Shown here: positions 2,910 to 22,193 of the stretch, one piece after another | How positions within the stretch are numbered: position 1 is the first letter of the stretch | Layout of the letters: each line of letters begins with the position of its first letter | DNA from: Alphaproteobacteria bacterium | Lineage (GTDB): Bacteria; Pseudomonadota; Alphaproteobacteria; JBHICW01 | Reading direction: 5' to 3' | DNA length: 24,000 bases | NCBI GenBank assembly: GCA_046759785.1 | Contig: JBHICW010000006.1 | Location: forward strand, 1,459-25,458 | Position numbers and translations under genes: made by a program | The notes under the pieces: model-generated | What the model saw: the letters and a program-made list of their open reading frames with translations, nothing else | The model's database searches: none | Told to the model about the DNA's origin: nothing

Positions 2910-3014
2910 AGGGCGGCAAGCGTGGAGAGCGGGACGGGCTGAGTCAATCGCCGGCGGCGCTCGCCAAGGCCCGGGAGTCCAGGCCGCCAATCCTTGCGCA
3001 GGAGACGGTGCGCT

Positions 3015-3479: not shown

Positions 3480-3495
3480 GACCCTTCCTCACGCC

Positions 3496-3828
3496 TCAAA
3501 CGCCGCCGCCCAGGCCGGCCGCCTCGCTACCCTTGTGGTGGTCGCGTAGGCGGCGCTTGTGGCGGCGCAGCTGCTTCTCCATGTGTCCCGCCGCAGCGCT
3601 GAAACTCTGGTAGATGTCGGTGCCATCGGCGTGACTCTCCATAAAAATTCCCTTGCCCACGCGGACCGAGATACGGATCCGGTAGCCCGGCCCCTCGTGA
3701 GAGAAGGCCACGTGGGCCTCGATGGCGCCGTCAAAGTACTTGCTGACGCCACGGGTGAGCCGTGCCTCTATGCGGCGCTGCAGGTCTTCGCCAATGTCGA
3801 TGTGTTTGCCGGTGACGGTCACAAGCAT
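3496..3828 (-). CDS. hpf: Ribosome hibernation promoting factor / sigma-54 modulation protein, short form (110 aa)
   Basis: MLVTVTGKHIDIGEDLQRRIEARL...YFDGAIEAHVAF...VRVGKGIFMESHADGTDIYQSF..A...EKQLRRHKRRLRDHH matches the HPF/YfiA fold pattern. Canonical position after rpoN. Confidence 0.85.
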   Translation of the reverse strand: MLVTVTGKHIDIGEDLQRRIEARLTRGVSKYFDGAIEAHVAFSHEGPGYRIRISVRVGKGIFMESHADGTDIYQSFSAAAGHMEKQLRRHKRRLRDHHKGSEAAGLGGGV

Positions 3829-3995
3829 GGTCGTTGACGTGCGACCCCGGATGGTTGGTGTTTCGTGGTGCTGCCGCCCATCGCTGCCCTATGTGGCGAC
3901 GGGGCGGCCCGAATGGAAGCGCTCGACCATAACATGATGACCGAAAGACGGCCAGACCACCTGTCAACCCCGCTTGCGACCATCGGCTCCATCCC

Positions 3996-5531
3996 TCAGC
4001 ACAGCACCTTCTTGAGACGCCGGCGCTGCGCCGATGAGGGGATCTTGAGCGTACCGCGATACTTCGCCACCGTGCGCCGGGCGATGTCGACCCCATCCTG
4101 TCCCAGGATGTCCACGATATGGTCGTCGGACAGCACGTCGTCCGCGCTCTCGTTCTCAATGAGCTCTTTGATCCGATGGCGCACGGCCTCGGCCGAGTGC
4201 ACCTCGCCACCGGTCGTGCTGCCGACGGCCGAGGTGAAGAAGTACTTCATCTCATAGATGCCCCGTGGCGTCGCCATGTACTTGTTCGTGATGGTGCGGC
4301 TCACCGTGCTTTCGTGCATGGACAGCGGCTCGGCGACGTCGCGGAGAACCAGGGGGCGCAGATGCTGGACGCCGTGGATGAGGAAGGCGTCCTGCCGGCG
4401 TACGAGCTCGCCGGCGACCCGGAGGACCGTGTTGCCCCTCTGGTGAAGCGACTTCACCAGCCAGTTGGCGGAGCTGTATTGCTCGGTAACGTAGTCCCGC
4501 TCTTCCGTCGTCTTCGCCGCCCCGACCACCTCGATGTAGTAACGCTCGTTCACCAGCACGCGCGGCAGGGTTTCCGTGTTGAGCTCGATGAGCCAGCCCC
4601 CGTCGGGACGCTGGCGGACAAAGACGTCCGGCACGATCGGCTGCACGACCTCGCGGTCGAACGCGAGGCCGGGCTTGGGGCTCAAACACCGGATCTCGGC
4701 CACCATTTGGCCGAGGTCCTCCGCGTCGACCCCGCACCGCTTCATGAGACCCGCCATGTCGCGCCGCGCGACGAGGTCGAGGTTGTCAAGCAGGCGTTCC
4801 ATGAGCGGGTCCAGGCGGTTCCGATCCTTGAGCTCAAGGGCCAGGCATTCCTTGAGGCTGCGCGCGAAGACCCCGGCCGGGTCGAAGCCCTGGAGCTTGG
4901 CCAGGGTCGCCTCGAGCCGGTCGAGGCCGCAGCCCAGGAGCTCCGCGGCCGAGGCGAGATCGGCGGTGAGGTAGCCCGCCTCGTCGATCATGTCGATGAG
5001 GTGGACCCCAATGATCCGTTCGGCCGGGTCCAGGAGGTCCATGTTGAGTTGGTCGAGCAGGTGCTCGCGCAGGGTCTTGGGCTGGCTCAGTGTCTGCTCG
5101 AGGCTCGCCGGCTCGCGGTCGAAGTCGGCCTGCCGGCTTCCGCTCCGCCAGGATCCGAACGGCGCCGTGGCGGCCGCCGAGTCGGCCCCGGCAGCGTCCG
5201 AGGACCAGAGGTTTTCGTAGTCCGTATCGAGCGGGGCCTCGTCTTCGGCCGGCAACCCGGCGTCCGTGGTGATCGCGGTGCTGTCCCGCTCCAACCCTGG
5301 TCCTGCAGCGGTCTCCGCCGCCTCACCGTCGCCGTCCAGCGTCGGCTGGTGGAGCTCGCCCTCGTCATCCTCGAGCAGGGGGTTGCGCTCGAGCTCCTGC
5401 GCCACGTAGTCGGCAAGTTCCAGGTTGGACAACTGCAGCAGCTTGATGGCCTGCTGCAGCTGCGGTGTCAGCACCAGCGCCTGCGTCTGGCGCAGGTGGA
5501 GACGTTGGGTGAGGGACGGGCCGCGGGGCAC
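3996..5531 (-). CDS. rpoN: RNA polymerase sigma-54 factor (511 aa)
   Basis: N-terminal region I LTQRLHLRQTQALVLTPQLQQAIKLLQLSNLEL. An acidic region II follows. C-terminal RpoN box ARRTVAKYR. GTG start at 5531, 2 nt after the lptB stop. Confidence 0.95.
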   Translation of the reverse strand: MPRGPSLTQRLHLRQTQALVLTPQLQQAIKLLQLSNLELADYVAQELERNPLLEDDEGELHQPTLDGDGEAAETAAGPGLERDSTAITTDAGLPAEDEAPLDTDYENLWSSDAAGADSAAATAPFGSWRSGSRQADFDREPASLEQTLSQPKTLREHLLDQLNMDLLDPAERIIGVHLIDMIDEAGYLTADLASAAELLGCGLDRLEATLAKLQGFDPAGVFARSLKECLALELKDRNRLDPLMERLLDNLDLVARRDMAGLMKRCGVDAEDLGQMVAEIRCLSPKPGLAFDREVVQPIVPDVFVRQRPDGGWLIELNTETLPRVLVNERYYIEVVGAAKTTEERDYVTEQYSSANWLVKSLHQRGNTVLRVAGELVRRQDAFLIHGVQHLRPLVLRDVAEPLSMHESTVSRTITNKYMATPRGIYEMKYFFTSAVGSTTGGEVHSAEAVRHRIKELIENESADDVLSDDHIVDILGQDGVDIARRTVAKYRGTLKIPSSAQRRRLKKVLC

Positions 5532-5533
5532 GT

Positions 5534-6388
5534 CTATAGGCTGAAGCTCTCGCCCAGGTAGAACCGCCGTACATCCTCGTGCGCGACGATCTCCGGCGGT
5601 GCCCCTTCCATCAGGACCATGCCGTCGTGAAGGATGTACGCGCGATCGATGATGTCGAGCGTTTCGCGCACGTTGTGGTCGGTGATGAGAACGCCCAACC
5701 CATGGTCCTTGAGGTGGACCACGAGGTCACGGATTTCGCTCAGCGCGATCGGGTCGATCCCGGAGAGAGGCTCGTCCAGCAACATGAAGCTGGGCTGGGA
5801 GGCGAGCGCGCGGGCGATCTCGACGCGGCGCCGCTCGCCGCCGGAAAGGGCAAGCGCGGGCGTACGCCTGAGGTGCGTGATCGAGAACTCGGCGAGCAAC
5901 TCGTCCAGCATCGCTTCGCGCTTCTCCCGGATGGACTCCACCACCTCGAGGACGGCGCGGATGTTGTTCTCCACCGACATCCCCCGGAAAATCGAGGCCT
6001 GCTGGGGGAGATACCCCACGCCGAGCCGCGCTCGGCGGTACATCGGAAGGCCCGTGATGTCGTGCCCATGGAGCCAAATGGTGCCGTAGTCGGGCGCGAG
6101 TAAGCCGGTGATCAGATAGAAGCAGGTGGTCTTCCCGGCCCCGTTGGGGCCGAGAAGGCCGACCACCTCCCCCCGCTGCACCGAGATGCTGACCCCGCGC
6201 AGGACCAGGTGCTTACGGTAGCGCTTGGAGAGGCTGTGAGCGGCCAGACCCGCGTTGTCGGCGACCAGCCGGGGTGATGCGCCCTTATTCTCGCCGGCCC
6301 CGTCACGGTTGGGGCCGGTGAAAACGGGCTGCGCCTGGTCTAGCCCGCCTTGACGCCCAAACGAACCCGCAGATACAGGCCCGACCAT
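5534..6388 (-). CDS. lptB: LPS export ABC transporter ATP-binding protein LptB (~284 aa, with N-terminal extension)
   Basis: Walker A GPNGAGKTTCFY, signature LSGGERRRVEIARAL, Walker B FMLLDEP and H-loop ITDHNVRE. Located between lptA and rpoN. I prefer ATG 6388 (GGAGA about 9 nt upstream) over the track GTG at 6397. Confidence 0.9.
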   Translation of the reverse strand: MVGPVSAGSFGRQGGLDQAQPVFTGPNRDGAGENKGASPRLVADNAGLAAHSLSKRYRKHLVLRGVSISVQRGEVVGLLGPNGAGKTTCFYLITGLLAPDYGTIWLHGHDITGLPMYRRARLGVGYLPQQASIFRGMSVENNIRAVLEVVESIREKREAMLDELLAEFSITHLRRTPALALSGGERRRVEIARALASQPSFMLLDEPLSGIDPIALSEIRDLVVHLKDHGLGVLITDHNVRETLDIIDRAYILHDGMVLMEGAPPEIVAHEDVRRFYLGESFSL

Positions 6389-6405
6389 GTCGTTCACTCT
6401 CCCCG

Positions 6406-6975
6406 CTAGTTCTCAGACTCCGATCGCCGCGGCACGAACAGGCCCTTCACCCGCTGGCCCGAACTGCCTGAGGCGTAATCTCCTTCGACCCGGGTCAACC
6501 CCGTCACGAGGTTAACCTCAAGCCGCTCGCCGCGGATGACATTCTGACCCCGGGTCAACACGACCGAGCCGAGCAAGTTTATCGTACTGGTCTTGACGTT
6601 GTAGACACCTTTCTCGCCTTGGGCCGTGTCGGCGGGCGACAAGAGCAACACGTTTCCCTGCGCCTCGATGCGCGAAATCGTCGTGCTGCCGTCCTCGCCC
6701 TCGCTGTAGTGGACGGTGAGCCTGTCGGCCTTGAGATGCAAATCGCCCTGCACGGCGTCGACGTTGCCGCGGAAGATCGCGATCCGCTGGTCCTGCTGGA
6801 CCTCCAGGCTGTCCGCGGCGATCTCGATGGGAAGCGTGGTGTCGTGTCGCTCCTTGAGATCGAGCTGGGCGCGCGAGGCGATGCCGCCGAGCGCGAGCCA
6901 GAGGACGACCGCCGAAAACAGGACAAGGGCGCGCACGCAACCGAGCCAGGTCCGGGCTGGCATATGCCTTCGCAC
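6406..6975 (-). CDS. lptA: LPS transport periplasmic protein LptA (OstA-like domain, 189 aa)
   Basis: Signal-like N-terminus followed by an OstA-type repeat pattern: IEIAADSLEVQQDQRIAIFRGNVDAVQGDLHLKADRLTVHY...IEAQGNV. Position is between lptC and lptB. An alternative start is ATG 6963. Confidence 0.8.
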   Translation of the reverse strand: MRRHMPARTWLGCVRALVLFSAVVLWLALGGIASRAQLDLKERHDTTLPIEIAADSLEVQQDQRIAIFRGNVDAVQGDLHLKADRLTVHYSEGEDGSTTISRIEAQGNVLLLSPADTAQGEKGVYNVKTSTINLLGSVVLTRGQNVIRGERLEVNLVTGLTRVEGDYASGSSGQRVKGLFVPRRSESEN

Positions 6976-6980
6976 CGTCG

Positions 6981-7631
6981 TTAGCCTCCCGCCGCGGGGT
7001 AAAGAATTAGTTTCACACGGCCGGTGAAGTATATCCTTTCCCCCTTGTCGACCGCGCGGAAGCCCGCGGCGGTGAGTAGACCCAGAGGCCCCTGGCCCTC
7101 TATGGGAACCTGACCTTCGGCCAGCCCCGCGTTGAAGTCGATCCGCGCGCTCGCGGTGTGCAGCTCATAGCCTTGGTCGGCGTAGAAGCTCACCGCGCCG
7201 TTGAGCTGAAGGGCCTTCGTCTCGTGGTTGAAGACCCCGGAGTCGGCAGTGAGCGCGAGCCAGTCTCCGTTGGCTAGCAAGATGTCGGCCTGAAGCCCTT
7301 TGAGAACGATCCGCTCCGGGTCCGACGGTTCTTGCGTGGCGGTCTCGGCGGTGACCGTGAACGGCTGGTTCTTGCCATCCGTGCCAAGGTACCGGGCGTT
7401 GGTCATGGAGAGCGTGCCGCTCTCGCTCTCCTTGATGTCGGCGAAGGAGATCCCGAGGCCCTCGTCGCGCTCGGTCATGTACGGCCAAGCCACCACAAGG
7501 GCCACGAACACGGCGGCGCTCAGCGGCAACACCAGCTTCATCATGGCGACGAAGCGGCTGTATCGGCGCCTCAGGGCGACGGGGCGGGACCGGACGCGGC
7601 GCGGCCGGGCGAACTGACGAGCGAAGGCCAT
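6981..7631 (-). CDS. lptC: LPS export system protein LptC (216 aa)
   Basis: Basic N-terminus and a single TM helix (LVLPLSAAVFVALVVAW), then a beta-rich periplasmic domain. The stop lies 5 nt before the lptA start. The call rests mainly on topology and synteny. Confidence 0.7.
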   Translation of the reverse strand: MAFARQFARPRRVRSRPVALRRRYSRFVAMMKLVLPLSAAVFVALVVAWPYMTERDEGLGISFADIKESESGTLSMTNARYLGTDGKNQPFTVTAETATQEPSDPERIVLKGLQADILLANGDWLALTADSGVFNHETKALQLNGAVSFYADQGYELHTASARIDFNAGLAEGQVPIEGQGPLGLLTAAGFRAVDKGERIYFTGRVKLILYPAAGG

Positions 7632-7896: not shown

Positions 7897-10557
7897 CTAG
7901 TCGAAATCGCGAAGGCCACCCCCGCCGCCCTCGCCGGCGAGGCTGGCGACGGCGGCCTGCAGGGCATGGGCGATCTTGGCCTCGGCACTCTGGCCCCGGC
8001 CTGAGGCCTCGAGCGCCTGGGGCTCGAGCGGCGCACCGAAGATGATACGCAAGGGCCTGAGCCGGGGGAGGCGCCGGCCCCTGGGCAGGGCCTCGAACGT
8101 GCCGCGGATCACCGCCGGCACCGCCACCGCGCCCGTCTCCTTCACGAGCCGCCCCACCCCGGGGAGGAATGGCTGGAGCCTTCCGTCGGGCGAGCGCCAC
8201 TCCTCGGGGAACCAGACCAGGAGCTTACCCCGCCGCAGCACCTCCACCCCCACGGCGAGGCTCGCGCCAGGTGTGCGGTCGTCGACCGGGAAGACGCGCG
8301 CCGCCCGGGCGACGAGCCGCCGCGACCGGCCGGAGAACATCCGTTGGGCGTCGCCGCCCCAGTGTATGCGCCGCGTTTGCCGCCAGGGGAGCGCCGCGGC
8401 GACGGCGAAGGTGTCGAGGTCGCTTGTGTGGTTTGAGGCGAGGAGCAGCGGGCCATCCGGCTCGGGCAGCCGGTCCAGCCCCTCCACCTTGAGGCCGAAG
8501 AGACCACGGATCAGCGCCCGGTTCAACAGGTAGAGGGCGAAGCCGAACGCCCTGAGCCCCGGCCCCGGCGGCGCGAGCCAGTCCCTCTCGACCGGCGCGC
8601 CGGCCGGCGCCGCTTCGCCCTCGCCCGCCGCCTCCGCGGCCCGGAGGAGGTCGCGCAGCGTCATCACGCTCGCCAGCGCTTCCTCGCTGAGCTTGACGCC
8701 CGTCCGCTCCTCCATCTCGAGGCTTAAGCTTACCCAGGCGAGCGAGTCGACACCCAAGTCGAGCTGCGGGCTCACATCGAGGGTGAGCCTCTTGTTGGGG
8801 AATCTCGTCTCAACCCACGCCCACACCCGGCGCGCGCGCGGCGACTTGAAGAGGGCCCGGTCCAATTCGGTCAGAGGTGCCTCCGGCGGCCGCCCCTCAC
8901 CCTTAGCGGCACGCTCGTAGACGCCCAAGAGCTCGTGGCGTTGGTACTTGCCGAGGCGCGTCCTGGGCAGGGTCTCGCGCGTCAAGGCGTAGCCCGACAC
9001 CCGCTGGTAGGGCCGAAGCCGCCGTGAAAGCTCGGCCAGCGTCACCCGGATCAGGTCGTCGATGCGACCTGTTCCGGCGTCTCGGATCGCCTCGAGCTCC
9101 GGGACCACGAGCGCCATCAGCGCACCGTCCTTTTTCAGCACCGCTACCTCGCGGATGTACGGGCTCTCCGCGTAGACGGCCTCCACGTCCTCGGGCGCCA
9201 GGTTCTTGCCGCCCGGGAGCACGATCATCTCGTTCGCGCGCCCGGTGACGTAAAGGTAGCCGTCGGCGTCCAGCCGTCCGAGATCCCCGGTGCGAAACCA
9301 GCCGTCCTCGGTGAACGCGGCCCGGTTTGCCGCCGGGTCGTTCCGGTAGCCCTTAAAGACGTTGGGACCGCGGAGCCAGACCTCGCCGGGCTGGCCTTCG
9401 CGGGCGGCGGCGACGCGCACCTCGCCGCCGGGGGCGGGGAGCCCCACCGAGCCTACCCGCGTGCGCCCGCGCGGGTTGAAGGTGGAGATGGAGGCGGTCT
9501 CGACGAGTCCGTAACCGTTCAAGATCTCGAAGCCGAGTCCCTCCAACGCCCGCTCGACCTCGGGCTCGAGCCTGGCACCGCCGCAGGCGAGGAGCTTAAG
9601 CTCCGGGCCCAGCTCCTCATGGAGCCGGTGGAACAGTAGCCGTCCGGCTCTGAGCCGGGCGTAGCGTCGGAGCGCCATGGAGAAGGTGAGGAGGGCGCGG
9701 AACAGGACCAGGGCAGGCCGCCCGCGCGCCTTGAGCTTCGCCTCGACGCCGGCGAGCATCGCCTCGTAGAGCCGCGGCACCCCGACCACGGCCCGCACCT
9801 GCCCCTCCCGGAGCGCCCGCACGATCTCGGGCCCAGTCACGTCCGCCGGGAGCACGATCGTCGCGCCGGCGGCGAGCGGTAGCAGCATGCCGGCGAGGAA
9901 GGGGTAGGAGTGGTGGAGCGGCAGGGGCAACAGAACCCGCTCGGCAGGCGCGATGAAGCGGCCGGCGAGCAGAGTCTCGAGGTTGCTCATGATGTTGCGG
10001 TGGGTGAGCGGCACGCCCTTGGGCGCCCCGGTGGTGCCCGAGGTGTAGAAGAGCGCCGCCGGCTCTTCGGGTCCGGGCTCGGGGAGGCTCTCGGGTGCCT
10101 CCCGGAGAAGGCTGCGCCAGTGCCGCGCCCCCTCCGGCCCCGGCCCGCCGTCGTCGAGAAGGATGGGCTCAAGGCGCTCCGCTCCATCCGTTCCCTGGAG
10201 TGTGGCGAGCTGGGCGCGGGTCGTGAAAATGCGGCGGCACCCACTGTCCGCCAGAACGTGGGTGAGGTGAGAGCCAGCCAGGAGGTCGTCGACCGGCACG
10301 GCGAGCGCCCCCACCGCAAGGAGAGCGAGGCGCGCCAGCACCCACTCGGGCCGGTTGGGGGCGAAGAGGGCGACCGGTTCCCCGGGCTCCACCCCGAGCT
10401 CCTTCAAGCCCCCTGCGAGGCGGGCTGCCTGGTCCCAGAGCTGGTCGTACGACCAGGTCAGGGTCGCCTCTTCGCCCACCGCGATCAGCGCCGGGGCCTC
10501 ACCGCGGGCGGCGACGCTCCGGACGACGAACTGAAGGGTGCCGCTCTCGACCGTCAT
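7897..10557 (-). CDS. Three-domain protein: acyl-AMP/acyl-CoA ligase (ANL), phosphopantetheine carrier domain, 1-acylglycerol-3-phosphate (PlsC/LPLAT) acyltransferase (886 aa)
   Basis: ANL motifs: LFYTSGTTGAPKG (aa 169-181), YGLVETAS, TGDLGRLDADGYLYVTGR, PRTRLGKYQR. Carrier motif LDLGVDSLAWVSLSLEME (Ser605). LPLAT motifs NHTSDLD (H710-X4-D), VFPVDD and FPEEWRSPDG. Confidence 0.8.
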   Translation of the reverse strand: MTVESGTLQFVVRSVAARGEAPALIAVGEEATLTWSYDQLWDQAARLAGGLKELGVEPGEPVALFAPNRPEWVLARLALLAVGALAVPVDDLLAGSHLTHVLADSGCRRIFTTRAQLATLQGTDGAERLEPILLDDGGPGPEGARHWRSLLREAPESLPEPGPEEPAALFYTSGTTGAPKGVPLTHRNIMSNLETLLAGRFIAPAERVLLPLPLHHSYPFLAGMLLPLAAGATIVLPADVTGPEIVRALREGQVRAVVGVPRLYEAMLAGVEAKLKARGRPALVLFRALLTFSMALRRYARLRAGRLLFHRLHEELGPELKLLACGGARLEPEVERALEGLGFEILNGYGLVETASISTFNPRGRTRVGSVGLPAPGGEVRVAAAREGQPGEVWLRGPNVFKGYRNDPAANRAAFTEDGWFRTGDLGRLDADGYLYVTGRANEMIVLPGGKNLAPEDVEAVYAESPYIREVAVLKKDGALMALVVPELEAIRDAGTGRIDDLIRVTLAELSRRLRPYQRVSGYALTRETLPRTRLGKYQRHELLGVYERAAKGEGRPPEAPLTELDRALFKSPRARRVWAWVETRFPNKRLTLDVSPQLDLGVDSLAWVSLSLEMEERTGVKLSEEALASVMTLRDLLRAAEAAGEGEAAPAGAPVERDWLAPPGPGLRAFGFALYLLNRALIRGLFGLKVEGLDRLPEPDGPLLLASNHTSDLDTFAVAAALPWRQTRRIHWGGDAQRMFSGRSRRLVARAARVFPVDDRTPGASLAVGVEVLRRGKLLVWFPEEWRSPDGRLQPFLPGVGRLVKETGAVAVPAVIRGTFEALPRGRRLPRLRPLRIIFGAPLEPQALEASGRGQSAEAKIAHALQAAVASLAGEGGGGGLRDFD

Positions 10558-10716: not shown

Positions 10717-11655
10717 CTAAGGACGGAACCCATGGACGCGTCGCGCCCTGACGCGGAGAACGCCCGGGCGTCCCCGCCGGCGCGGGCGCGGCGGCGCCCG
10801 GGGTGCCGACCAGGGGGCCCTCAAGGGGCGGTCGGGGACGAGGCCGCGTCCAAGCCGCTCCCCCGGGATCTCGACCCGGGCGGCGGGGACCAAGAGGCGC
10901 CAGTCGTGGTCGACCGGCAAGACGTCGTGCAAGTAGTCCTTGCCCGCGGTCCTTTCGCCCACGACCTCGGCGTCAGCGTAGCGCCTCAAGAGCGCGGCCA
11001 GCATCTCGGCGCTCGACGCGGTCTCAGGGCCGACGAGGACGGTGAGCCGCTTGACACCCCCGGCCCTGCCGGCCGAGGGAATCGCCTGGGAGGTGCGCTC
11101 GCCGTCGCGCACGAGGTAAAGCGCCGCATTCACGGGTCCGGTAAACACGCCGGCGACCCTGAGCATGCGGGCGAACGGGCCGCCCCTGTTCGAGCGGAGG
11201 TCGAGGACCACCGAGGCGCCGTCAACCCCGGCGACGGCCGTGAGCGCGTCCTTGACCTCCTGCTCCGCCTGACGCTCGAAGCGCTCAAGCGGGATGAGCC
11301 AGCGGCCGTCCTCGAGCCGGCGAAGCGCCCCCAGGGAGCGGCGCCAGGTGACGCCGCGGATCGTGTCGGTGTCGGGGTGGGGAACGCGCTCGAGCGCGGC
11401 GCGCCCGTCGAACACGCCCGCGAGCGCCGTCGCCGCACAGACGAGGTCGGAGCCGCAGGAGGCGCGCACGACGGCAAGCGGCCGCACCCGCGCTACGGCG
11501 GGCGCGCGGGCGGTCACCGCCTCGTAGAGCCGTGCCAGCGCATCCGGCTGGGCTTCCGCCCTGCCCATGAGCGCCAGGACGGCAGCCGCGGCGAGGCTAG
11601 TGGCAATAATTGCGGGCGCCGACCATCGTCGCGCCCCAGGGTTCCTCGCCCACAC
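10717..11655 (-). CDS. S41-family (C-terminal processing peptidase-like) serine peptidase, short, with predicted signal peptide (312 aa)
   Basis: S41 blocks: VVLDLRSNRGGPF, VLVGPETASSAEMLAALL (nucleophile Ser region) and GERTAGKDY (general-base Lys). The N-terminus RRWSAPAIIATSLAAAAVLALMGRAEA-QPD looks like a signal peptide. GTG start at 11655 lies inside the 3' end of the upstream gene. The alternative ATG 11568 would remove the signal peptide. Confidence 0.7.
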   Translation of the reverse strand: MWARNPGARRWSAPAIIATSLAAAAVLALMGRAEAQPDALARLYEAVTARAPAVARVRPLAVVRASCGSDLVCAATALAGVFDGRAALERVPHPDTDTIRGVTWRRSLGALRRLEDGRWLIPLERFERQAEQEVKDALTAVAGVDGASVVLDLRSNRGGPFARMLRVAGVFTGPVNAALYLVRDGERTSQAIPSAGRAGGVKRLTVLVGPETASSAEMLAALLRRYADAEVVGERTAGKDYLHDVLPVDHDWRLLVPAARVEIPGERLGRGLVPDRPLRAPWSAPRAPPRPRRRGRPGVLRVRARRVHGFRP

Positions 11656-12766
11656 CGTCGATCATGCCGAGAAGCTGCTGAGTCTTGACGTCGATCACGG
11701 CCACCCGGTCCGAGCCGCTGAGGGCAACATAGAGCTTGCGGCCGTCGGGTGTCGTGACCCCGGTCTCCGGCGAGCCGGGAAGCGGGATCTCGCCGACCTT
11801 CGCCATGGCCTCGAGGTCGAGCACGACCGCCTTGTCCTCGCCCCGGCTGATGACGAACGCGACCGTGCCGCCGGGGTCGCTGTTGACGCCGGTCATGTCC
11901 TTCGCACCCGGGAGCGTCGCCACGACCTCGAGCGAGGAGGTCGAGATCACGGAGATCGTCGCGTCGCCGTTGTTCGGCACCAGCATGTGGCGGCCTTGCG
12001 CCGTGGCATAGGCGCGCCACGGCATCGGTCCGAGGGCGATCCGCCCGAGCCCCTGGCCCGTGGTGAGGTCGATCACCGCGAGGACGCCGGCCTCCCCGTG
12101 GGCGGCGAAGCCCAGGCGGCCGTCCGGCGTCGGCGTCACGTTGATGATGCCCTGGTACGCCTGGGGCGCGGCCCCGAGCGCGCCGACGGCCGCGGGCCCG
12201 GCCACCGGAACCTCGTCTATGATCCGCGCCTCGGCCACGTCGATGACGCTCACGTGGTTGGCGCCCAGGTTCGCCACGTAGAGCCGCGAGCCGTCGCGAC
12301 TGAAGGTCAGGTTGTGCGGCTCGAACAATCCGCGGATGCGGGCGACCTCTCGCGCCTCATCGAGCGCGACCAGGGAGACCGTGCCACCCCCGATATTCCC
12401 GACGGCAACGAGTCGGCCGTCGGGGTGGAGCTGCATGTGCTCCGGCTCGCTGTCGAGGCGGAGGGTCGCCACCGATGCGAGAGTCTCGAGGTCCACGATC
12501 GAGATGGTGTCGTCGCCGGTATTGGTGGCGACGAGCCTGTTCAGCGACTCCGAGACGACCACCTGGTGGGGGACGTTGCCGACGTCGAGGTGCGCGACGA
12601 CCCGGTCCGTCAGGCTGTCGATCACGGCCACGTCGGCGGAGGCACGGTTGGGCACGAACACGTACCGGGCCACGTCATCGAGGGCGTGGGCGCACGGGAT
12701 CCAGAGGAAAGCCGCGGCGAGCGCGGCGGGTAAGCTGACTCGGGCGACGGTCTTCATCTCATTCAC
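11597..12766 (-). CDS. Secreted YVTN-family beta-propeller repeat protein (389 aa)
   Basis: Signal peptide MKTVARVSLPAALAAAFLWIPCAHA. Eight recognisable units of about 45 aa, e.g. SRDGSRLYVANLGANHVSVIDVAEARII and TPDGRKLYVALSGSDRVAVIDVKTQQLL. Ends in GARNYCH. GTG 12766 has GAGGA 8 nt upstream; ATG 12757 is an alternative. Confidence 0.8.
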   Translation of the reverse strand: MNEMKTVARVSLPAALAAAFLWIPCAHALDDVARYVFVPNRASADVAVIDSLTDRVVAHLDVGNVPHQVVVSESLNRLVATNTGDDTISIVDLETLASVATLRLDSEPEHMQLHPDGRLVAVGNIGGGTVSLVALDEAREVARIRGLFEPHNLTFSRDGSRLYVANLGANHVSVIDVAEARIIDEVPVAGPAAVGALGAAPQAYQGIINVTPTPDGRLGFAAHGEAGVLAVIDLTTGQGLGRIALGPMPWRAYATAQGRHMLVPNNGDATISVISTSSLEVVATLPGAKDMTGVNSDPGGTVAFVISRGEDKAVVLDLEAMAKVGEIPLPGSPETGVTTPDGRKLYVALSGSDRVAVIDVKTQQLLGMIDGVGEEPWGATMVGARNYCH

Positions 12767-12864
12767 TTCTCTTGTCCTCGTTTCTGCGCGGGCCCGCCCC
12801 GGAAGGGCGTGTCACCACACGGGAGGAGTCCCATCCCGCCAGAATGCCCCGTCCGGCGGTGAGT

Positions 12865-13040
12865 GACGCGTGACAGCAGGTCTCCTGGCTCGCGGTTCAA
12901 GGTCCTTGCGCTGGCCTTCCCTGTTTGCCCAATGGCGCGGCCTGCAAGACCTCACCGCCTACAGTTGCGGTGACAGCCCTGGCTTTGACCCCGGCAAAAG
13001 GTCTGACCGTGTTCCCTTTTCATCCTCGTGAGGGGAGCCG
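12865..13040 (-). promoter_or_regulatory. Cobalamin (B12) riboswitch aptamer in the 5' leader of the beta-propeller gene
   Basis: The minus strand shows the conserved blocks in the correct order. These are AAAAGGGAAC (rc 13011-13020), GGTCAAAGCC (rc 12981-12990) and GCTGTCACCGCAACTGT (rc 12961-12977). Then come GCGCCATTGGGC (rc 12927-12938), GGGAAGGCC (rc 12913-12921) and the B12 box CCGCGAGCCAGGAGACCTGC (rc 12876-12895). The 5' part seems to carry an extra hairpin relative to the consensus. No covariance model was run. Confidence 0.8.
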
Positions 13041-13048
13041 TCGGCGGA

Positions 13049-13077
13049 ACTATAGGGGGCTCAAGGGTCGTCCGCAA
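13049..13077 (-). promoter_or_regulatory. Sigma70-like promoter for the riboswitch transcript
   Basis: The minus strand reads TTGCGG (rc 13072-13077), a 17-nt spacer, then TATAGT (rc 13049-13054). This places the TSS near 13042, just upstream of the aptamer. Confidence 0.4.
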
Positions 13078-14778: not shown

Positions 14779-15102
14779 ATGGACGAAGGTGGGTTCGAAT
14801 CGGCCGTCGACGCACTGCACCACCGGCTCCCGGGCCGGTTGGAGAGGGCGGACACGGACCTTGAGGTCGGCCTTGAAAGGGGCGTTCTCACCATCGAGCT
14901 GGCTTGGCGGCAAAATTACGTGAACGGCAAGGACGCGCCCAACCGGGAGATGTGGATGGCGTCGCCGGTGAGTGGCGCTAGCCACTTCCCCTGCGGGCCG
15001 GCCGCGGGACGCTGGGTCTGCAAACCGGGAGGCGAAGCTCTCATCGATCTGCTGGCGCGGGAGCTCGAGGCCGCGGCCGGCGCCGAGTTCGACCTTGGCT
15101 AG
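14779..15102 (+). CDS. cyaY: Frataxin-like iron-sulfur cluster assembly protein CyaY (107 aa)
   Basis: [12 protein letters not shown]...[15 protein letters not shown]...[16 protein letters not shown]...[17 protein letters not shown] follows the CyaY/frataxin pattern (GVLTI..., IW(L/M)AS..SG..HF). ATG at 14779; the upstream 45 codons of the track ORF are not conserved-looking. Confidence 0.8.
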
Positions 15103-16993
15103 CGGCGCGTTCCAAGGCCGGGCGAGAGGTGAGCTCGGCGCCGGCCTTGCGGAGGGCGGCGCGGGTCCAAGCGAGCGGCCGGCGAGCCGCGACCTCCGCC
15201 ACCTCCGCCACGTCGTAAGGTTCCTCAGGCCTTACCGGCTTCAGGTGGCTGGCGCCGTGGCGGCGCTGACGGTGGCGGCGGGGACGGTACTGGCGATCGG
15301 CGTGGGGCTGCGCCGCCTCGTCGACGAAGGGTTCGCCAAGGGCGAGGCGGCGCTGTTGGATCAGGCCTTGGTGGCGCTCTTCGCGGTCATCGCGCTGCTC
15401 GCGCTGGCGAGCTATGGGCGGTTCTTTCTCGTCTCCTGGATCGGCGAGCGCCTTGTCGCCGACATCCGGCGTGCCGTGTACGATCACATCATCGGGCTAA
15501 GCCCCAGCTTTTTCGAGATCACCAAGACCGGCGAGGTCCTCTCGCGGCTCACGACCGACACCACTCTCCTACAGGCCGTCATCGGCTCCAGCGCGTCGAC
15601 GGCGCTCAGGAACCTTCTTCTCCTCGTCGGCGGGACGGTAATGCTGGCGATCACGAGCCCGCGGCTCACGGCGCTCGTCTTCGTGATTGTGCCGCTCGTC
15701 ATCCTCCCCATCGTCGTGGTCGGGCGCCGGGTGCGCAGGCTGTCCCGCTTAAGCCAGGATCGCGTGGCCGACGCGGGGGCCCATGTCGAGGAAACCATAA
15801 ACGCTGTCCGCACGGTCCAGGCCTTCGCCCACGAGGACCTCGAGCGCCGCCGTTTCGGGCGCCGGGTGGAGGAGGCCTTCGCCACCGCCGTGCGCCGCGT
15901 GCGTGCGCGGGCCTTGCTCACCGCGCTGGTGATCCTGACCGTCTTCGGGGCGGTTGGGGTGGTACTGTGGATCGGCGGCCACGACGTGCTCGGCGGGCGG
16001 ATCACGGCGGGCGAGCTTTCGGCCTTCGTCTTCTATGCCGTGGTCGTAGCCGGGTCGGTCGGAGCGATCAGCGAGGTCGTCGGGGACCTCCTGCGCGCCG
16101 CCGGCGCGACCGAGCGCCTCGTCGAGCTGCTGGCCACGCGCCCGGTCATCACGGCCCCCGCTCGGCCGAAGGCCCTGCCCGAGCCGGCGCGCGGCGCGGT
16201 GGCTCTGGATGGCGTCACGTTCCGCTACCCGGCGCGGCGGAATCGACCCGCACTGCGGGACTTCACGCTCAGGGTCGAGCCGGGTGAAACGGTCGCGCTC
16301 GTGGGGCCGTCGGGCGCTGGGAAGAGCACCGTCTTCCAGCTTCTCCTCCGTTTCTACGATCCTGACACCGGGACCGTGCGGCTGGACGGGGCGGCCATCC
16401 GCGAGGCGGCGCCCGAGGCGGTGCGCGCCCGGATCGCGGTGGTCCCGCAGGATCCGGTTATCTTCGCGGCCGACGCGTGGGACAACATCCGCTACGGCCG
16501 GCCCGGGGCGTCCGACGCCGAGGTGCGCGCCGCCGCCGAGGCGGCCGCGGCGAGTGAGTTCCTCGACCGCCTGCCGCAGGCGTTCGCAACCTTCCTGGGC
16601 GAGCGCGGGGTGCGTCTCTCCGGCGGCCAGCGCCAGCGGATCGCGATCGCGCGGGCGATCTTGCGAAACGCGCCAATCCTTCTGCTCGACGAGGCGACGA
16701 GCGCGCTCGATGCTGAAAGCGAGCGCGTGGTGCAGGCGGCGCTCGAGACGCTCATGAAGGGCCGGACGACGATCGTCATCGCCCACCGGCTCGCCACCGT
16801 GCTGAAGGCGGACCGCATCGTCGTCATGGATGCGGGCCGGACCGTGGCCACCGGCACGCACGGCGAGCTCATCGCCCAAGGCGGCCTTTATGCCCGCCTT
16901 GCCGCGCTCCAGTTCGATACCGACCGCGCTTTGAGAGGCGAGGACGAGCCGGGCGCCGCCGAGGCCGGGTCATCGCGGCTGTCGGCGGAATAG
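15095..16993 (+). CDS. ABC exporter, fused permease/ATPase (ABCB / MsbA-like half-transporter)
   Basis: N-terminal LRHVVRFLRPYRLQVAGAVAALTVAAG followed by six predicted TM segments. NBD motifs: GPSGAGKST, LSGGQRQRIAIARAIL, LLLDEATSALD, IAHRL. The start is unresolved. Between 15098 and the conserved N-terminus there is no in-frame ATG, GTG or TTG. The candidates are therefore TTG 15095 (8-nt overlap with cyaY) and GTG 14972 (131-nt overlap). Confidence 0.85.
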   Translation: MASGAFQGRARGELGAGLAEGGAGPSERPASRDLRHLRHVVRFLRPYRLQVAGAVAALTVAAGTVLAIGVGLRRLVDEGFAKGEAALLDQALVALFAVIALLALASYGRFFLVSWIGERLVADIRRAVYDHIIGLSPSFFEITKTGEVLSRLTTDTTLLQAVIGSSASTALRNLLLLVGGTVMLAITSPRLTALVFVIVPLVILPIVVVGRRVRRLSRLSQDRVADAGAHVEETINAVRTVQAFAHEDLERRRFGRRVEEAFATAVRRVRARALLTALVILTVFGAVGVVLWIGGHDVLGGRITAGELSAFVFYAVVVAGSVGAISEVVGDLLRAAGATERLVELLATRPVITAPARPKALPEPARGAVALDGVTFRYPARRNRPALRDFTLRVEPGETVALVGPSGAGKSTVFQLLLRFYDPDTGTVRLDGAAIREAAPEAVRARIAVVPQDPVIFAADAWDNIRYGRPGASDAEVRAAAEAAAASEFLDRLPQAFATFLGERGVRLSGGQRQRIAIARAILRNAPILLLDEATSALDAESERVVQAALETLMKGRTTIVIAHRLATVLKADRIVVMDAGRTVATGTHGELIAQGGLYARLAALQFDTDRALRGEDEPGAAEAGSSRLSAE

Positions 16994-17127
16994 GAACGGC
17001 GCCGCGGCCGATCGGCAACGGCTCGAAACGCGCGGAACTCGTTTCCCTCGATGTCTTGACTGGCGAAGGGCTGGTGGCTTGCCCGGCGCCGCCCACGCCT
17101 GACCCCGCGTTCCGGGACGGGCCCAAG

Positions 17128-18552
17128 TCAGCGCTGGGTGAGCTTTAGCTCGATGCGTCGGTTGCGGCGGAAGGCGATCTCGTCGTCGCGAGCGTCGAGG
17201 GGCTGGAACGCGCCGAACCCGGTCGCGGCCAACCGCTCGGGCGGGACCCCGTGGTCGATCAGGAAACGCACGACCGAGATCGCCCGGGCGGTCGACAGCT
17301 CCCAGTTGGAGGGGAATTGGAAGGTCTGGATCGGCCTACGGTCGGTGTGCCCGTCGACGCGCAGGGTCCAGGGGAGGTCGGCGGGGATCTCTTGCGCGAT
17401 CTCCAAGAGCGTTGCGGCAAGGGCCGCGAGCTGGATCATGCCGGGCTCCTCCAGCTCGGCAGAGCCCGAAGCGAAGAGCACTTCCGACTGGAAGACGAAA
17501 CGGTCGCCGACCACGCGGATGTCCGGCCGGTCGCCCAGGACTTCGCGCAAGCGGCCGAAGAACTCCGAGCGGTACCGCTCCAGTTCTTCGACCTTGCCGG
17601 CGAGGGCGATATTGAGGCGCTGGCCGAGGTCCGCGATGATGACCTTCTGCTCCTCGTCCTTGGCCTCGGCCGCCTCGAGGGCGGCGTTGAGTGCCGCAAG
17701 CTGTTGGCGCAGGGCGGCTATCTGCCGGTTTAAGAGTTCGAGCTGTCTTTCCGCCTCGCTGGAAATCTTCCGCTCCTCTGTGAGGTCCCGGTCGCTCTGC
17801 TCGAGGAGGTTCACGACCTCGGCTAGCTGGATTTCCCTTTCCTCCAGCTGCGTCTGGGCCAGCGCCGTGCGCTCCTCCTCCTCCGCGACGCGCGTCTCGA
17901 GCTCGGCCGAGCTGTCGCGCAGCGCGGTGAAGTCCTTTTCGAGCCTCGCCGTCTTGTCCTGACTCTCGGCGAGCGAGGCCGCCATCTGGCTCACCTGGGC
18001 CTCGAGCTCGGCGCGGACCTGCTTGAGCGCCGTGATGTCGCGGCGGAGCCTCTCGATCTCAATGAGCCTTATCTTAAGTGTGTCCTCGCCCACCTCGATC
18101 TCGGTCAGCGCCTGGTCGAGCCGCGTCTTGGTGTCGGCGGCCGCGGCCTCGGCCCCTTCGGCGCGCTCAGTGAGCGTTGCGATCTCTTCCTCCAGGGTCT
18201 GGAGCCTCAGGGTCAGCGTCTCCCGTTCCCCGAAGAGGTTGGCGAGCTGTGCGCTCAGCTCGTCGCGCTCTTCCGTTGAGCGCTGAAGCTCGGCCGAAAG
18301 CTGCGCCATGCTGAGGCGGAGATCGGCGTTCGCCTCGCGCTCGAGAGAGAGCTGCTCCGCAAGCTCGTTGACCTGCCGCTGGAGCTGTCCCAGGGCTTGG
18401 TTTTGCCCCGTCAGGGTGTATCTCAGGAAGAAATCCGCCAGCATGAAGGCCACCAGCAGGAAGATGATGACCATGAGGAGGGCGGCCAGGGCGTCGACGA
18501 ACCCGACCCAGATGTCGCTGGTGCGCGCGGCACGACGAGAGGGGAGGGCCAT
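17128..18552 (-). CDS. MotB-like stator subunit: N-terminal TM helix with conserved Asp, ~300-aa coiled coil, C-terminal OmpA/MotB peptidoglycan-binding domain (474 aa)
   Basis: TM segment IWVGFVDALAALLMVIIFLLV carries an Asp placed as in MotB, ExbD and TolR. A heptad-rich Q/E/L/A region spans about aa 45-330. OmpA-like C-terminus: FQSEVLFASGSAEL...LRVDGHTD...SNWELSTARAISVVRFL...NRRIELKL. Confidence 0.8.
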   Translation of the reverse strand: MALPSRRAARTSDIWVGFVDALAALLMVIIFLLVAFMLADFFLRYTLTGQNQALGQLQRQVNELAEQLSLEREANADLRLSMAQLSAELQRSTEERDELSAQLANLFGERETLTLRLQTLEEEIATLTERAEGAEAAAADTKTRLDQALTEIEVGEDTLKIRLIEIERLRRDITALKQVRAELEAQVSQMAASLAESQDKTARLEKDFTALRDSSAELETRVAEEEERTALAQTQLEEREIQLAEVVNLLEQSDRDLTEERKISSEAERQLELLNRQIAALRQQLAALNAALEAAEAKDEEQKVIIADLGQRLNIALAGKVEELERYRSEFFGRLREVLGDRPDIRVVGDRFVFQSEVLFASGSAELEEPGMIQLAALAATLLEIAQEIPADLPWTLRVDGHTDRRPIQTFQFPSNWELSTARAISVVRFLIDHGVPPERLAATGFGAFQPLDARDDEIAFRRNRRIELKLTQR

Positions 18553-18564
18553 GGGACGGTCGAG

Positions 18565-19710
18565 CTAGTGTCGCTTCGTCTCGTTGGCGGCGGCAATCGT
18601 GCGGGCGAGTAGCTTGATCTCGCTGCGGAGCTCCTCGACCATCTGGGTCCGCCCCGAGACGGTTTCCTCCAGAAGCCGCATCATGCAGACGTCGATGTTG
18701 CGGATGTGGGCGCGGCTCGCGTCGTCGATCCCGGCCTCGTCCCGGCCGGAGATCTCGCTGAGCTTCTGGAGCAGCGGCTTCATGCTCATCTGGCTCTCCC
18801 CGAGCTTCATCATGAGCTGCTGCTCCGTCCGCATCTGGTCGGAGAGGGTGGCGAGCTTCTCGGTGAGCTGCTGGAGGTTCGCATTCGCCGCCATGCGGCC
18901 CTCCTCGCCGCGGGCGAGGGTCCGCTGCAGGTTCTCGAGGCTGTCGGCCGTCTGCTCGAGGAGGGCGCTCACATAGGCCGGGATCGACGGGTCACCCTCG
19001 CCGATCGTCGGAAGGCCGCTCGACAGGCGGGTGAGGCTCGACAGCCAGTCCTCCAGCTCGTTGTAGAAGCGGTTCTGCGCCTGGCTCGCCTGGAGGTCCA
19101 GGAAGCCGAGGAGGAGCGAGCCGGCGAGTCCGAAGAGCGACGAGCTGAACGCCGTGCCCATGCCGCCGAGAGGTGCCGTGAGCCCCTCTTTCAGGCTGCC
19201 GAAGATGTCCGCCACGTTGCCCTCGCCAGCCGAGAGCCCCCCGACCACGTCGCCCACCGAGTAGATCGTCTGCAAGAGGCCCCAGAAGGTTCCCAGCAGC
19301 CCGAGGAAGATGAGGAGCCCGATCAGATAGCGCGAAATGTCGCGCGATTCGTCGAGACGCGCGCTGATCCCGTCGAGAAGCGAGCGCATCGAGATCGCCG
19401 ACAGCGACAGCCCGCCCGCTCGCTCGCCGAGCATGGTCGCCATGGGCGCCAACAGCCGCGGGGGCCGCTGCACCGACAGGCCCGGTTGGCTCCGCCGGAA
19501 GGTCTCGATCCACTTGACCTCGGGGTAGAGCATGGCGACTTGGCGGAAGATGTAAATCACCCCCAGCGCCAGGACACCCAGGATCACGCCGTTGATCACG
19601 GCGTTGGCCATGAAGAACTGGCTGAGCGTGGCGAAGAAAGCCGCCGCGACCAGCAGCACGATCACCAGGAAGCCCAGCATGCGATAGAGAAAGACCTGCG
19701 GGCGACTCAT
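18565..19710 (-). CDS. MotA/TolQ/ExbB-family proton-channel protein with ~165-aa helical cytoplasmic tail (381 aa)
   Basis: Two N-terminal TM helices. Then LIGLLIFLGLLGTFWGLLQTI and GMGTAFSSSLFGLAGSLLLGFL, which is the MotA_ExbB core pattern (LGLLGT..G ... AF..T..GL). The C-terminus is predicted helical or coiled. The stop lies 12 nt before the MotB-like start. Confidence 0.8.
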   Translation of the reverse strand: MSRPQVFLYRMLGFLVIVLLVAAAFFATLSQFFMANAVINGVILGVLALGVIYIFRQVAMLYPEVKWIETFRRSQPGLSVQRPPRLLAPMATMLGERAGGLSLSAISMRSLLDGISARLDESRDISRYLIGLLIFLGLLGTFWGLLQTIYSVGDVVGGLSAGEGNVADIFGSLKEGLTAPLGGMGTAFSSSLFGLAGSLLLGFLDLQASQAQNRFYNELEDWLSSLTRLSSGLPTIGEGDPSIPAYVSALLEQTADSLENLQRTLARGEEGRMAANANLQQLTEKLATLSDQMRTEQQLMMKLGESQMSMKPLLQKLSEISGRDEAGIDDASRAHIRNIDVCMMRLLEETVSGRTQMVEELRSEIKLLARTIAAANETKRH

Positions 19711-19749
19711 TGTGGGACCTCTATCCGCGTGCTTGAGGCCATGCCGCCG

Positions 19750-20652
19750 TCACCGGGGCAGCAGGAAGATGTCGACCCGGTCGGGCGGCCCGCCTTCCGA
19801 CTTGTTGCCGAGCGCACGGACATCGATGCGGGTGCTCCGCACACCCTGGTCAAGGAGGAACGCACGAACCGAAAGCGCGCGCGACAACGACAGACGCCGG
19901 GCCGCGCTCACGGTTCCGGACGTCCCGCCTGCATAGGCCTTGAGCTGCGCGCGGGCAACGTCGCTGGTCGCGAACTTCGCCGCCAGGGCCTTGAGCTCGG
20001 GCTTGACTGCCTCAGGGACCTCCGTCTCGCTGCCGTCGAACCCGATGCGAAGGAGACGCCCTGGCTTGCTCACGTCGAAGTCGACCGAGGGCGGCAGCGC
20101 GGCCACCGCGGTCTGCGTCGCGCTGGCGGCCCGGGTGGGCTCCGGGAGCGGGGTCGGCGCAGGCGGAGGCGGCTCGGGCGTGGCCGCCGCCGGGGCGGGG
20201 ACGGCTGTATCGGTCGGCTCCGGCTCCGGGAGCGGCGTCGGTACGACGACCGTTCCGGAGGCAGGGGCCAGTGCCCCGAGCGCCGCCTCCTCCGATGGCG
20301 GAATGAGCTTGATGGGCGCCAGGCTTGGAGGCGACGTCCCGGGCACGAGCAGCCACCTCGGGTCGCCGCGGGTCAGCACATCGGCATAGGGTGACGGCTG
20401 ACCCAGGGTATCGAGAACGTCCAAATTAACTTCGACGGCCGGCAGGCGGCTGCCACCGATGATCACCGTCTCCTGCGCGTCGCCCGTGGACGGCCAGCCA
20501 CCTGCGGCAACGGCCAGTGTCGCCGCCAGAAGGGCGCATGAGGGACGCGTCGGCGCCCGCGTGCGCCGCCTAATCCAAGCAGCCACGAAAACTCTTCGGT
20601 CTCTTCGGGTTCGGGCCCGTGAGTTCAGTCGCTTCCAGTGCTGCGGCACCAT
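19750..20652 (-). CDS. Exported protein with Pro-rich linker and C-terminal OmpA-like domain
   Basis: Signal-like CALLAATLAVAAGGWPSTGDA. Pro/Glu/Thr linker with PTPLPEP duplicated. C-terminus ARRLSLSRALSVRAFLLDQGVRSTRIDVRALGN resembles the OmpA_C peptidoglycan-binding helix. Start is uncertain among TTG 20676, ATG 20652 and GTG 20586. Confidence 0.6.
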   Translation of the reverse strand: MVPQHWKRLNSRARTRRDRRVFVAAWIRRRTRAPTRPSCALLAATLAVAAGGWPSTGDAQETVIIGGSRLPAVEVNLDVLDTLGQPSPYADVLTRGDPRWLLVPGTSPPSLAPIKLIPPSEEAALGALAPASGTVVVPTPLPEPEPTDTAVPAPAAATPEPPPPAPTPLPEPTRAASATQTAVAALPPSVDFDVSKPGRLLRIGFDGSETEVPEAVKPELKALAAKFATSDVARAQLKAYAGGTSGTVSAARRLSLSRALSVRAFLLDQGVRSTRIDVRALGNKSEGGPPDRVDIFLLPR

Positions 20653-20739
20653 ACCGTAGGTACGTCTTGAGAACAACCGGTTTGGGCGGAGACCGGCGTG
20701 CCGGGGAGGGGTCGGCGAGGCCAGGGTGGGCCTGCTCGC

Positions 20740-21561: not shown

Positions 21562-21574
21562 GGCCGACGACCTT

Positions 21575-22141: not shown

Positions 22142-22193
22142 GCGCCGGCGCCCGCGCCCGGCAGCCGCCCCGGCCGCCGGCGGGCGGAAACTA

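Follow-up and report, generated by a model that had tools for sequence, protein, structure and literature searches.

Genes that follow a cobalamin riboswitch have been sorted into regulon classes of B12 biosynthesis, transport of B12 or its precursors, cobalt transport, and B12-independent isozymes (PMC3766115). Cobalt transporters were largely found by their place in B12 operons, beside the chelatase, or behind a riboswitch (PMC7689651; PMC545781). The predicted cobalt-uptake genes CbiMNQO, CbtAB, CbtJKL, NiCoT, CbtX and the B12-regulated NikKMLQO are controlled by an adenosylcobalamin (AdoCbl) riboswitch and head or lie inside B12 operons next to the chelatase (PMC7689651, PMC545781, PMC2667541), with NikK and CbtJ being periplasmic parts of these uptake systems. 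Neither an outer-membrane component specific for cobalt nor a soluble periplasmic one has been confirmed (PMC7689651), an OprB-type porin has earlier been suggested from gene position to take up Fe2+, and the passage of cobalt through the Gram-negative envelope toward B12 synthesis is poorly understood. Here we examine a 24,000-nucleotide (nt) stretch of an alphaproteobacterial contig (NCBI GenBank assembly GCA_046759785.1, contig JBHICW010000006.1, positions 1,459 to 25,458), referred to below as the window, in which a cobalamin riboswitch precedes two overlapping genes, one for an exported beta-propeller and the other for an S41-family hydrolase. Like the cobalt-uptake genes, the pair stands behind an AdoCbl riboswitch and, in relatives, heads or lies inside B12 operons beside the chelatase; unlike them, it encodes soluble exported proteins and not membrane transporters, and the uptake systems show no sequence or fold kinship to either protein.

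In our view the pair represents new proteins for the task of an already known regulon class, cobalt supply being the most likely one. An earlier reading of the DNA from its letters alone (the sequence-only reading) had placed it outside every known cobalamin regulon class, and this stands to the extent that no characterised B12-regulon family includes either protein. It does not stand for the operons in which relatives are found, where the module heads cobU-cobW-cobN-cobO or precedes cbiX-cbiC-cbiD; because such an operon position is the classical genomic signature of cobalt supply, and not of corrinoid scavenging, the pair is not outside the regulon classes. Our literature search found no published description of this propeller/S41 family in a B12 or cobalt context, and the module has been overlooked because annotation pipelines name its products "YncE family protein" and "S41 family peptidase".

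An all-family Rfam scan returned one match in the whole window, the cobalamin riboswitch RF00174, which is covered at full length (model positions 1-189) with a score of 76.7 bits against a gathering threshold of 31.5 (E 1.4e-17) and bears out the riboswitch and B12 box described from sequence (Table 1). The outermost P1 pairs of the aptamer are non-canonical, and the aptamer lies upstream of the propeller gene with 92-101 nt between its end and the propeller start. The promoter-like TTGCGG-17-TATAGT element that the sequence-only reading had picked out is present and is kept in the closest relative, locus L066. A consensus promoter scan does not call it, since the -35 element fits at only 3 of 6 positions. 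From the sequence, transcription would start approximately 7 nt past TATAGT, at about 13042, where the inner P1 helix begins.

Table 1. Features of the riboswitch-propeller-S41 locus (positions are those of the window)
Feature	Position	Strand	Details
Promoter-like element	13049..13077	minus	TTGCGG 13077-13072, 17-nt spacer, TATAGT 13054-13049
Cobalamin (AdoCbl-type) riboswitch aptamer	12858..13057	minus	RF00174, B12 box GAGCCAGGAGACCUGC included
Hairpin CCGCCGGACGGGGCAUUCUGGCGG	12836..12859	minus	directly 3′ of the aptamer, in the place of the P13 kissing-loop hairpin
Rest of expression platform and start region	12755..12835	minus	GGGACUCCUCCC 12832-12821, GAGGA 12779-12775, GTG 12766, ATG 12757
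Exported eight-bladed YVTN/YncE-type beta-propeller, ending NYCH	11597..12766	minus	389 amino acids from GTG 12766
S41-family Ser/Lys hydrolase, PDZ-less	10717..11655	minus	312 amino acids from GTG

The synteny of riboswitch, propeller gene and S41 gene recurs in relatives, contrary to the condition under which the sequence-only reading would have counted itself refuted, namely that orthologous pairs never have the riboswitch. A scan of one genome per species gave 55 loci of the propeller family, drawn from metagenome-assembled genomes of Kiloniellales, Geminicoccaceae, Hyphomicrobiales, Thalassospiraceae and Sneathiella and from the isolate Thermopetrobacter sp. TC1. Among the 47 loci whose downstream sequence is long enough, 42 have the S41 gene directly after the propeller gene, and the propeller gene is found without it in L022, L025, L032, L046 and L052. 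Rfam scans of 19 loci placed RF00174 directly upstream of the orthologue in 17, with scores of 88-129 bits, and a profile built from the Rfam-found aptamers, used with further Rfam scans, placed a riboswitch ahead of the orthologue in approximately 45 of 62 assessable alphaproteobacterial loci. At least 16 loci show the order riboswitch-propeller-S41-(cobU/cobP)-cobW-cobN-cobO, also with cobQ, and in two Hyphomicrobiales loci (L036 and L048) a gene for a CbiM-like permease sits between the riboswitch and the propeller. Neither btuF/CD nor btuB occurs in the propeller's transcription unit in about 100 loci from this group and the second clade described below, no nir genes were seen in any examined locus of either clade, and the propeller operons of the window and the alphaproteobacterial loci contain no TonB receptor gene.

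Two smaller observations belong with these loci. Behind a riboswitch in L057 (1265-1711), heading cobU-cobW-cobN-cobQ, there is a 148-amino-acid (aa) propeller remnant in which an internal deletion has fused the first blade to the last, and which keeps the signal peptide and the NYCH end. In the riboswitch-less loci L063 (8954-9448), L067 (9960-10715), L060 (12582-13034), L010, L022 and L023 the pair is followed by a PNPOx/CREG/DUF2470 gene that overlaps the S41 stop codon by 4 nt and is translationally coupled to the S41 gene; its cytoplasmic product is HugZ/HutZ-like with a weak TIGR04110 match, a possible link to tetrapyrroles or flavins.

The module extends beyond the Alphaproteobacteria. 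In a search of 1.8 billion representatives for distant homologues, the window's propeller family formed one cluster at 50% identity, and dozens of more distant exported propellers of approximately 370-420 aa also end in Tyr-Cys-His (YCH), some keeping the ring of histidines described below. P0276, which is 40% identical to the window propeller (E 2e-82), has the same ring and YCH tail, and its gene sits behind two tandem riboswitches and a gene for an OprB-family porin. A metagenome scan with the P0276 subfamily gave 43 loci with GC contents of 37-67%, from phyla other than the window's. In 30 of the 36 assessable loci of this second clade a same-strand RF00174 aptamer precedes the genes, commonly as a tandem of two or three, and the usual order is riboswitch(es)-OprB porin-propeller-CbiX-CbiC-CbiD-methyltransferases, with riboswitch-propeller-CbiX and riboswitch-propeller-CobO-CbiD as alternatives. 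Of the loci, 21 have the OprB-family porin and at least 12 have cbiX. S41-like genes with an intact dyad accompany 11 of the loci, three of them with a riboswitch of their own, and most loci of the clade have no S41 gene. In two loci FecCD/ABC (btuCD-like) genes lie upstream of the riboswitch.

Within the second clade, two or three tandem aptamers stand before porin and propeller in L069, L081, L083-L086, L088, L089, L091 and L094 (in L088 at 295-461, 641-806 and 960-1143), and in L081, L083 and L085 the S41-like gene lies between two aptamers. Beside riboswitch-propeller-cbiX, loci L101, L102, L103, L105, L108, L109 and L113 carry a divergent unit of riboswitch, TonB receptor and PepSY_TM protein, which in L108 comprises a riboswitch at 4999-5200 on the minus strand, the receptor gene at 2649-4844 and PepSY_TM at 1203-2630. 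The PepSY-TM partner resembles a siderophore-reductase-type protein and could mark B12-regulated uptake of a chelated substrate. In the gap between porin and propeller, L087 (1002-1047) and L095 (5887-5932, minus strand) show matches to the Acido-Lenti-1 small RNA (RF01687, 52 bits), and these matches hint at the phylum of the two contigs.

The propeller itself agrees with its first description as an exported eight-repeat YVTN protein ending in NYCH. Its true start is more likely ATG 12757, giving 386 aa, than the upstream GTG, because NCBI annotates the ATG and because the GTG frame meets a stop in L066. The signal peptide is of the AxA type, ending AHA|L, and has no lipobox. The protein matches the Pfam family YNCE (PF21783) with 66.4 bits against a cut-off of 27.1 and the YVTN repeats of TIGR02276 with 135 bits against 27.85. 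Eight blades are seen in the AlphaFold (AF2) model (predicted local distance difference test, pLDDT, 90.4; predicted template modelling score, pTM, 0.87), and eight A-strand motifs in the sequence. The family has more than 950 homologues, the best 120 of which are 64-79% identical and all end in Tyr-Cys-His. Among 52 full-length relatives from genome loci, some of which have a riboswitch and some of which do not, no variation is seen in the C-terminal YCH (Y387, C388 and H389) or at H67, Q68, H110, H151, N152, Q205, W250, R251, M261, N266, N295, E334, T335 and W377. Most of the invariant positions (His, Gln, Trp-Arg, Glu-Thr and Trp) begin the innermost strand of successive blades, and from propeller topology they would ring the central channel on one (top) face, roughly one per blade.

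The place of the module in these operons points to cobalt supply. The propeller module is assigned to that class because it stands first in operons of both the late-insertion (cobW-cobN) and the early-insertion (cbiX) type, and because a porin, a CbiM-like permease or metallochaperones join it while btuF/CD are never co-transcribed with it. Members of the class combine a riboswitch with clustering among B12 or chelatase genes; the family shows both, and the window itself shows the riboswitch part only. Under the mechanism we propose, the riboswitch would turn off the two-gene operon when AdoCbl is plentiful, and the propeller would serve as a periplasmic metal-binding protein that captures Co(II) past the outer membrane and passes it to an inner-membrane importer. 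The capture would be made by the ring residues His67, His110 and His151, together with Gln, Trp-Arg, Thr, Glu-Thr and Trp, and by the Tyr-Cys-His tail, with the ring histidines and the Cys-His of the tail as candidate metal ligands; His, Cys and Glu are typical ligands of Co(II). The S41 hydrolase might act on the propeller or its partners, by processing or turnover, or might set the ligand free. AztD, a zinc metallochaperone, and the PedA2-type proteins (TIGR03866) of metal ABC uptake systems are periplasmic propellers that serve metal import, and offer a functional model for the window propeller. AztD binds its metal through conserved His on the propeller. That the pair forms a new periplasmic module for cobalt capture and hand-off to B12 synthesis is the account we favour, tentatively and somewhat short of calling it probable.

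No described propeller equivalog could be adopted as a name for the protein, as the models for L-NosZ, AztD, PedA2, YncE and the PQQ-associated propellers were all rejected at scores far below their curated cut-offs. The score was 14.7 bits against 400 for AztD (NF038015), where an adjacent ABC transporter is also missing from the locus, and 137 bits against 287 for TIGR03866. NikK was likewise considered as a homologue and set aside, as its family is a different periplasmic one, leaving PMC2667541 as a functional precedent only.

The fold of the propeller brings in a different ligand. In a Foldseek search the best full-length structural matches are the eight-bladed heme-d1 propellers of cd1 NirS, NirN and NirF, with template modelling (TM) scores of 0.74-0.78 and E ~1e-18, and PF02239 (Cytochrom_D1) is above threshold on the protein over residues 38-132 only. 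Like the window propeller, the heme-d1 propellers (the d1 domain of cd1, NirN and NirF) are periplasmic and eight-bladed. Their central pocket holds a modified tetrapyrrole, bound via His and Arg. They differ from the window propeller in sequence (16-19% identity) and in having no C-terminal YCH tail, and the window propeller is without a cytochrome c domain or nir context. Profile alignments of the propeller to NirF and NirS are fragmentary, and the heme-d1 axial His could not be mapped on them. BtuG provides a second comparison. It is also a propeller of YncE/YVTN type under B12 riboswitch control, serving B12 acquisition in Bacteroides, and the family profile detects BtuG2 (PDB 8ptf) at E 2.5e-6 and NirF at E 1e-10. 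The sequence-only reading, which had called BtuG the product of an unrelated lineage, must therefore be corrected on this point, since BtuG is itself a YncE-family propeller, though structurally a poorer match than the heme-d1 propellers. BtuG has seven blades and is a surface lipoprotein that is encoded with BtuB and bound to it, whereas the window propeller has eight blades, a signal peptidase I (SPase-I) signal peptide and no btuB partner.

In a sharper form of the model from the sequence-only reading, the propeller would bind a corrinoid or another tetrapyrrole in its central pocket in the periplasm, the His or Cys of the tail would provide an axial ligand to the cobalt, the bound compound would be salvaged or stored, and the S41 protein would free or trim it. 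The heme-d1 and BtuG2 matches, the Trp, Trp and Arg of the invariant ring, which recall tetrapyrrole pockets, the HugZ/HutZ-like gene (PNPOx plus DUF2470) that is coupled to S41 at loci having no riboswitch, and the divergent riboswitch-TonB-receptor units adjoining the propeller in seven loci all agree with such a function. Eight-bladed YVTN propellers are rare in the PDB, however, so the cd1 match may reflect blade number alone, and BtuG2 ranks only 49th among the structural matches with a TM score of 0.56. Further, the outer-membrane partner is an OprB-type porin and not a TonB receptor, and by our own reasoning its channel would be too narrow for a corrinoid of approximately 1.3 kDa; btuF/CD are not co-transcribed with the propeller in either clade; and the operons that house the module, beside the chelatase, belong to de novo producers. 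Corrinoid scavenging is not the best-supported reading, and we regard corrinoid or tetrapyrrole binding as unlikely, though as a rival to be taken seriously.

The lone cysteine of the tail and the genes found around some of the propellers bear on another explanation. Sco1 and/or PCuAC metallochaperone genes adjoin the pair in eight loci, two of which (L014 and L037) also have the riboswitch. Among the distant YCH propellers, those without the His ring adjoin DsbD-like, Sco1 and HMA genes, or a DsbA gene, which suggests that their lone C-terminal cysteine needs periplasmic thiol-redox care. In L070 such a propeller (1417-2586) lies between a DsbD/CcdA-like membrane protein (1-1404) and Sco1 (2597-3277), with an HMA gene opposite, and others of the set L070, L071 and L072 have the propeller directly after a DsbA gene. 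Thiol-redox partners of this kind fit a functional lone cysteine. We also entertained the idea of single-Cys heme attachment (xxxCH) at the C-terminus, which would fit the DsbD and thioredoxin-fold neighbours and has no other support.

One could accordingly picture a copper- or thiol-dependent periplasmic redox propeller that is loaded by Sco1/PCuAC and made when B12 is depleted, and that detoxifies a B12-destroying agent such as N2O or reduces Co(III) before import. Work by Sullivan and colleagues in 2013 reportedly showed that B12 is inactivated by N2O, with derepression of the regulons under B12 riboswitches. GlxA, a propeller cuproenzyme of Streptomyces, acquires its mature form through chaperones of the Sco and PCuAC type, and the window propeller has a weak NCBIfam similarity to lactonase-type NosZ, which adds to the chaperone and thiol-redox neighbours just described. 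That similarity amounts to 81 bits against a cut-off of 700 for L-NosZ (NF052460); L-NosZ would have about 480 aa including a copper electron-entry domain, whereas the protein here is a 389-aa propeller only, with no CuA domain or electron-entry site. There are also no adjacent nos, nir or cytochrome genes, the copper chaperones occur at a minority of loci, and the position before cobW-cobN or cbiX is left unaccounted for, making a redox propeller of this kind very unlikely.

The second gene of the pair overlaps the 3′ end of the propeller gene by 59 nt. Its product matches PF03572 with 77 bits against 24 (E 1e-21), and the description of it as an exported Ser/Lys S41 peptidase-like protein is borne out, given the GTG start. 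The alternative start used by NCBI, ATG 11568, gives 283 aa, and export hinges on the upstream GTG because the ATG start drops the signal peptide. The dyad Ser214/Lys239 (TASS-E ... GK-D) is invariant in 35 homologues, a domain-family search found no PDZ family match, and every NCBIfam Ctp model scores far below its cut-off (55 against 218.6 for TIGR00225). In the AF2 model (pLDDT 84) the core matches the catalytic core of CtpA/Prc, and the protein, at about 280 aa, has an N-terminal helical bundle of its own. The best PDB sequence match is IRBP, and a non-catalytic IRBP-like S41 protein was considered and rejected, as the Ser/Lys dyad is intact and invariant here.

CtpA-LbcA and Prc-NlpI share the S41 core and Ser/Lys dyad with this protein, and in both the protease works with a non-catalytic partner; that partner is a TPR protein there and would be the propeller here, and the S41 protein here has no PDZ domain, the part by which C-terminal processing peptidases recognise the end of a substrate. 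By analogy with these pairs and with tricorn propellers, the propeller could deliver or gate substrates for the PDZ-less S41 enzyme in envelope remodelling at B12 limitation, with no small-molecule ligand. The intact dyad and the CtpA/Prc-like core are consistent with this, a PDZ-less S41 enzyme would need some other means of substrate recognition, the gene overlap suggests translational coupling, and the S41-like genes of 11 second-clade loci speak for an ancient partnership. Yet the propeller often occurs without S41, as in most second-clade loci and the five alphaproteobacterial loci listed above, and an adaptor would leave the invariant His ring and the Cys-His tail unaccounted for, with no candidate substrate evident and no reason for the link to cobalt chelatases. 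We give little credence to a protease-adaptor pair. As judged from the comparisons, the S41 partner is old and has the look of an active enzyme, but many loci do without it, and no model, including cobalt supply, accounts for its role.

The region between the aptamer and the start codon was examined for the mode of control. The hairpin at 12859-12836 is present in both the minimum free energy (MFE) and the centroid fold, and the same sequence is kept across 25 platforms; going by known cobalamin-riboswitch architecture, it may be the kissing-loop partner. Downstream of the P13-like hairpin, 24 relatives have a conserved helix, GGCAUGGG / CCC-AUG-UC, that sequesters the start codon. No U-tract or intrinsic terminator lies between the aptamer and the start codon in the window, as the sequence-only reading had seen; the sole terminator-like match falls where the signal peptide is encoded and is no more than chance would give. 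A U-tract occurs in almost none of approximately 40 platforms. Since the sequestering helix is found in 24 relatives and U-tracts are almost absent, translational control is the norm of the family. In the window copy, abundant AdoCbl would shut off the operon, probably at translation. The particular means proposed by the sequence-only reading, pairing of a CTCCTC (CUCCUC) tract with the Shine-Dalgarno sequence, is conserved only in L066. The 3′ platform variant of the window is common to L066 only (which has a 62-nt insertion there), and the window platform folds no better than shuffled sequences (z = 0.14). Reading a mechanism from single-sequence folding of the platform was dropped for this reason.

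Several findings weigh against cobalt supply. The whole window is without cob, cbi, btu or cobalt-transport genes, in agreement with the sequence-only reading, which had reported no transporter gene there; its platform (12755-12835) is without the start-codon-sequestering helix of the 24 relatives; and approximately 17 alphaproteobacterial loci have no riboswitch. The closest folds, cd1 NirS, NirN and NirF, are all tetrapyrrole binders, BtuG, a B12 binder, is a detectable relative, and the invariant ring, with its two Trp and its Arg, would be well suited to a large organic ligand. The chaperones Sco1 and PCuAC handle copper and not cobalt, and the hydrolase is without an obvious job in the handling of a metal ion. 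Most other members of the propeller family carry Sec-type signals, and the homologue in Thermopetrobacter sp. TC1 (L038, ~7908), with its best-supported start MSKINRRRFLHSAF..., looks like a twin-arginine (Tat) substrate. If real, the Tat signal would mean that this propeller is exported folded and possibly loaded with a cofactor.

Cobalt supply would have consequences beyond the window. The propeller would be the first soluble protein of the periplasm dedicated to handling cobalt, it would fill a gap in B12/cobalt metallostasis, and it could be used as a marker of cobalt limitation in marine and soil metagenomes. The module spans Alphaproteobacteria and unrelated lineages of varied GC content, and it is conceivable that the YCH-tailed eight-bladed propellers in general are widespread, unrecognised periplasmic cobalt metallochaperones which, with the OprB porin and/or the S41 protein, make up a new envelope route for cobalt in several phyla; we put this wider proposal forward with more reserve than that for the pair. 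Should the propeller bind a corrinoid instead, BtuG would be joined by a second, independent propeller that binds B12.

The remainder of the window shows no sign of belonging to the unit. At 160 nt downstream of the S41 gene lies a gene for an 886-aa fusion of AMP-dependent ligase, phosphopantetheine-binding and PlsC-type acyltransferase regions (7897-10557, minus strand; Aas-like). This gene and that of a HAD phosphatase were considered as further members of the unit and rejected, as they are conserved beside the pair in 0 of 58 loci. The flanks at 1528-7631 (minus strand) and 14972-24000 make up a housekeeping block with rapZ-like, hprK, ptsN, hpf, rpoN, lptB, lptA and lptC genes and, further along, genes for an ABC exporter, two OmpA-family proteins, an inositol monophosphatase, EF-P and a class-I aldolase.

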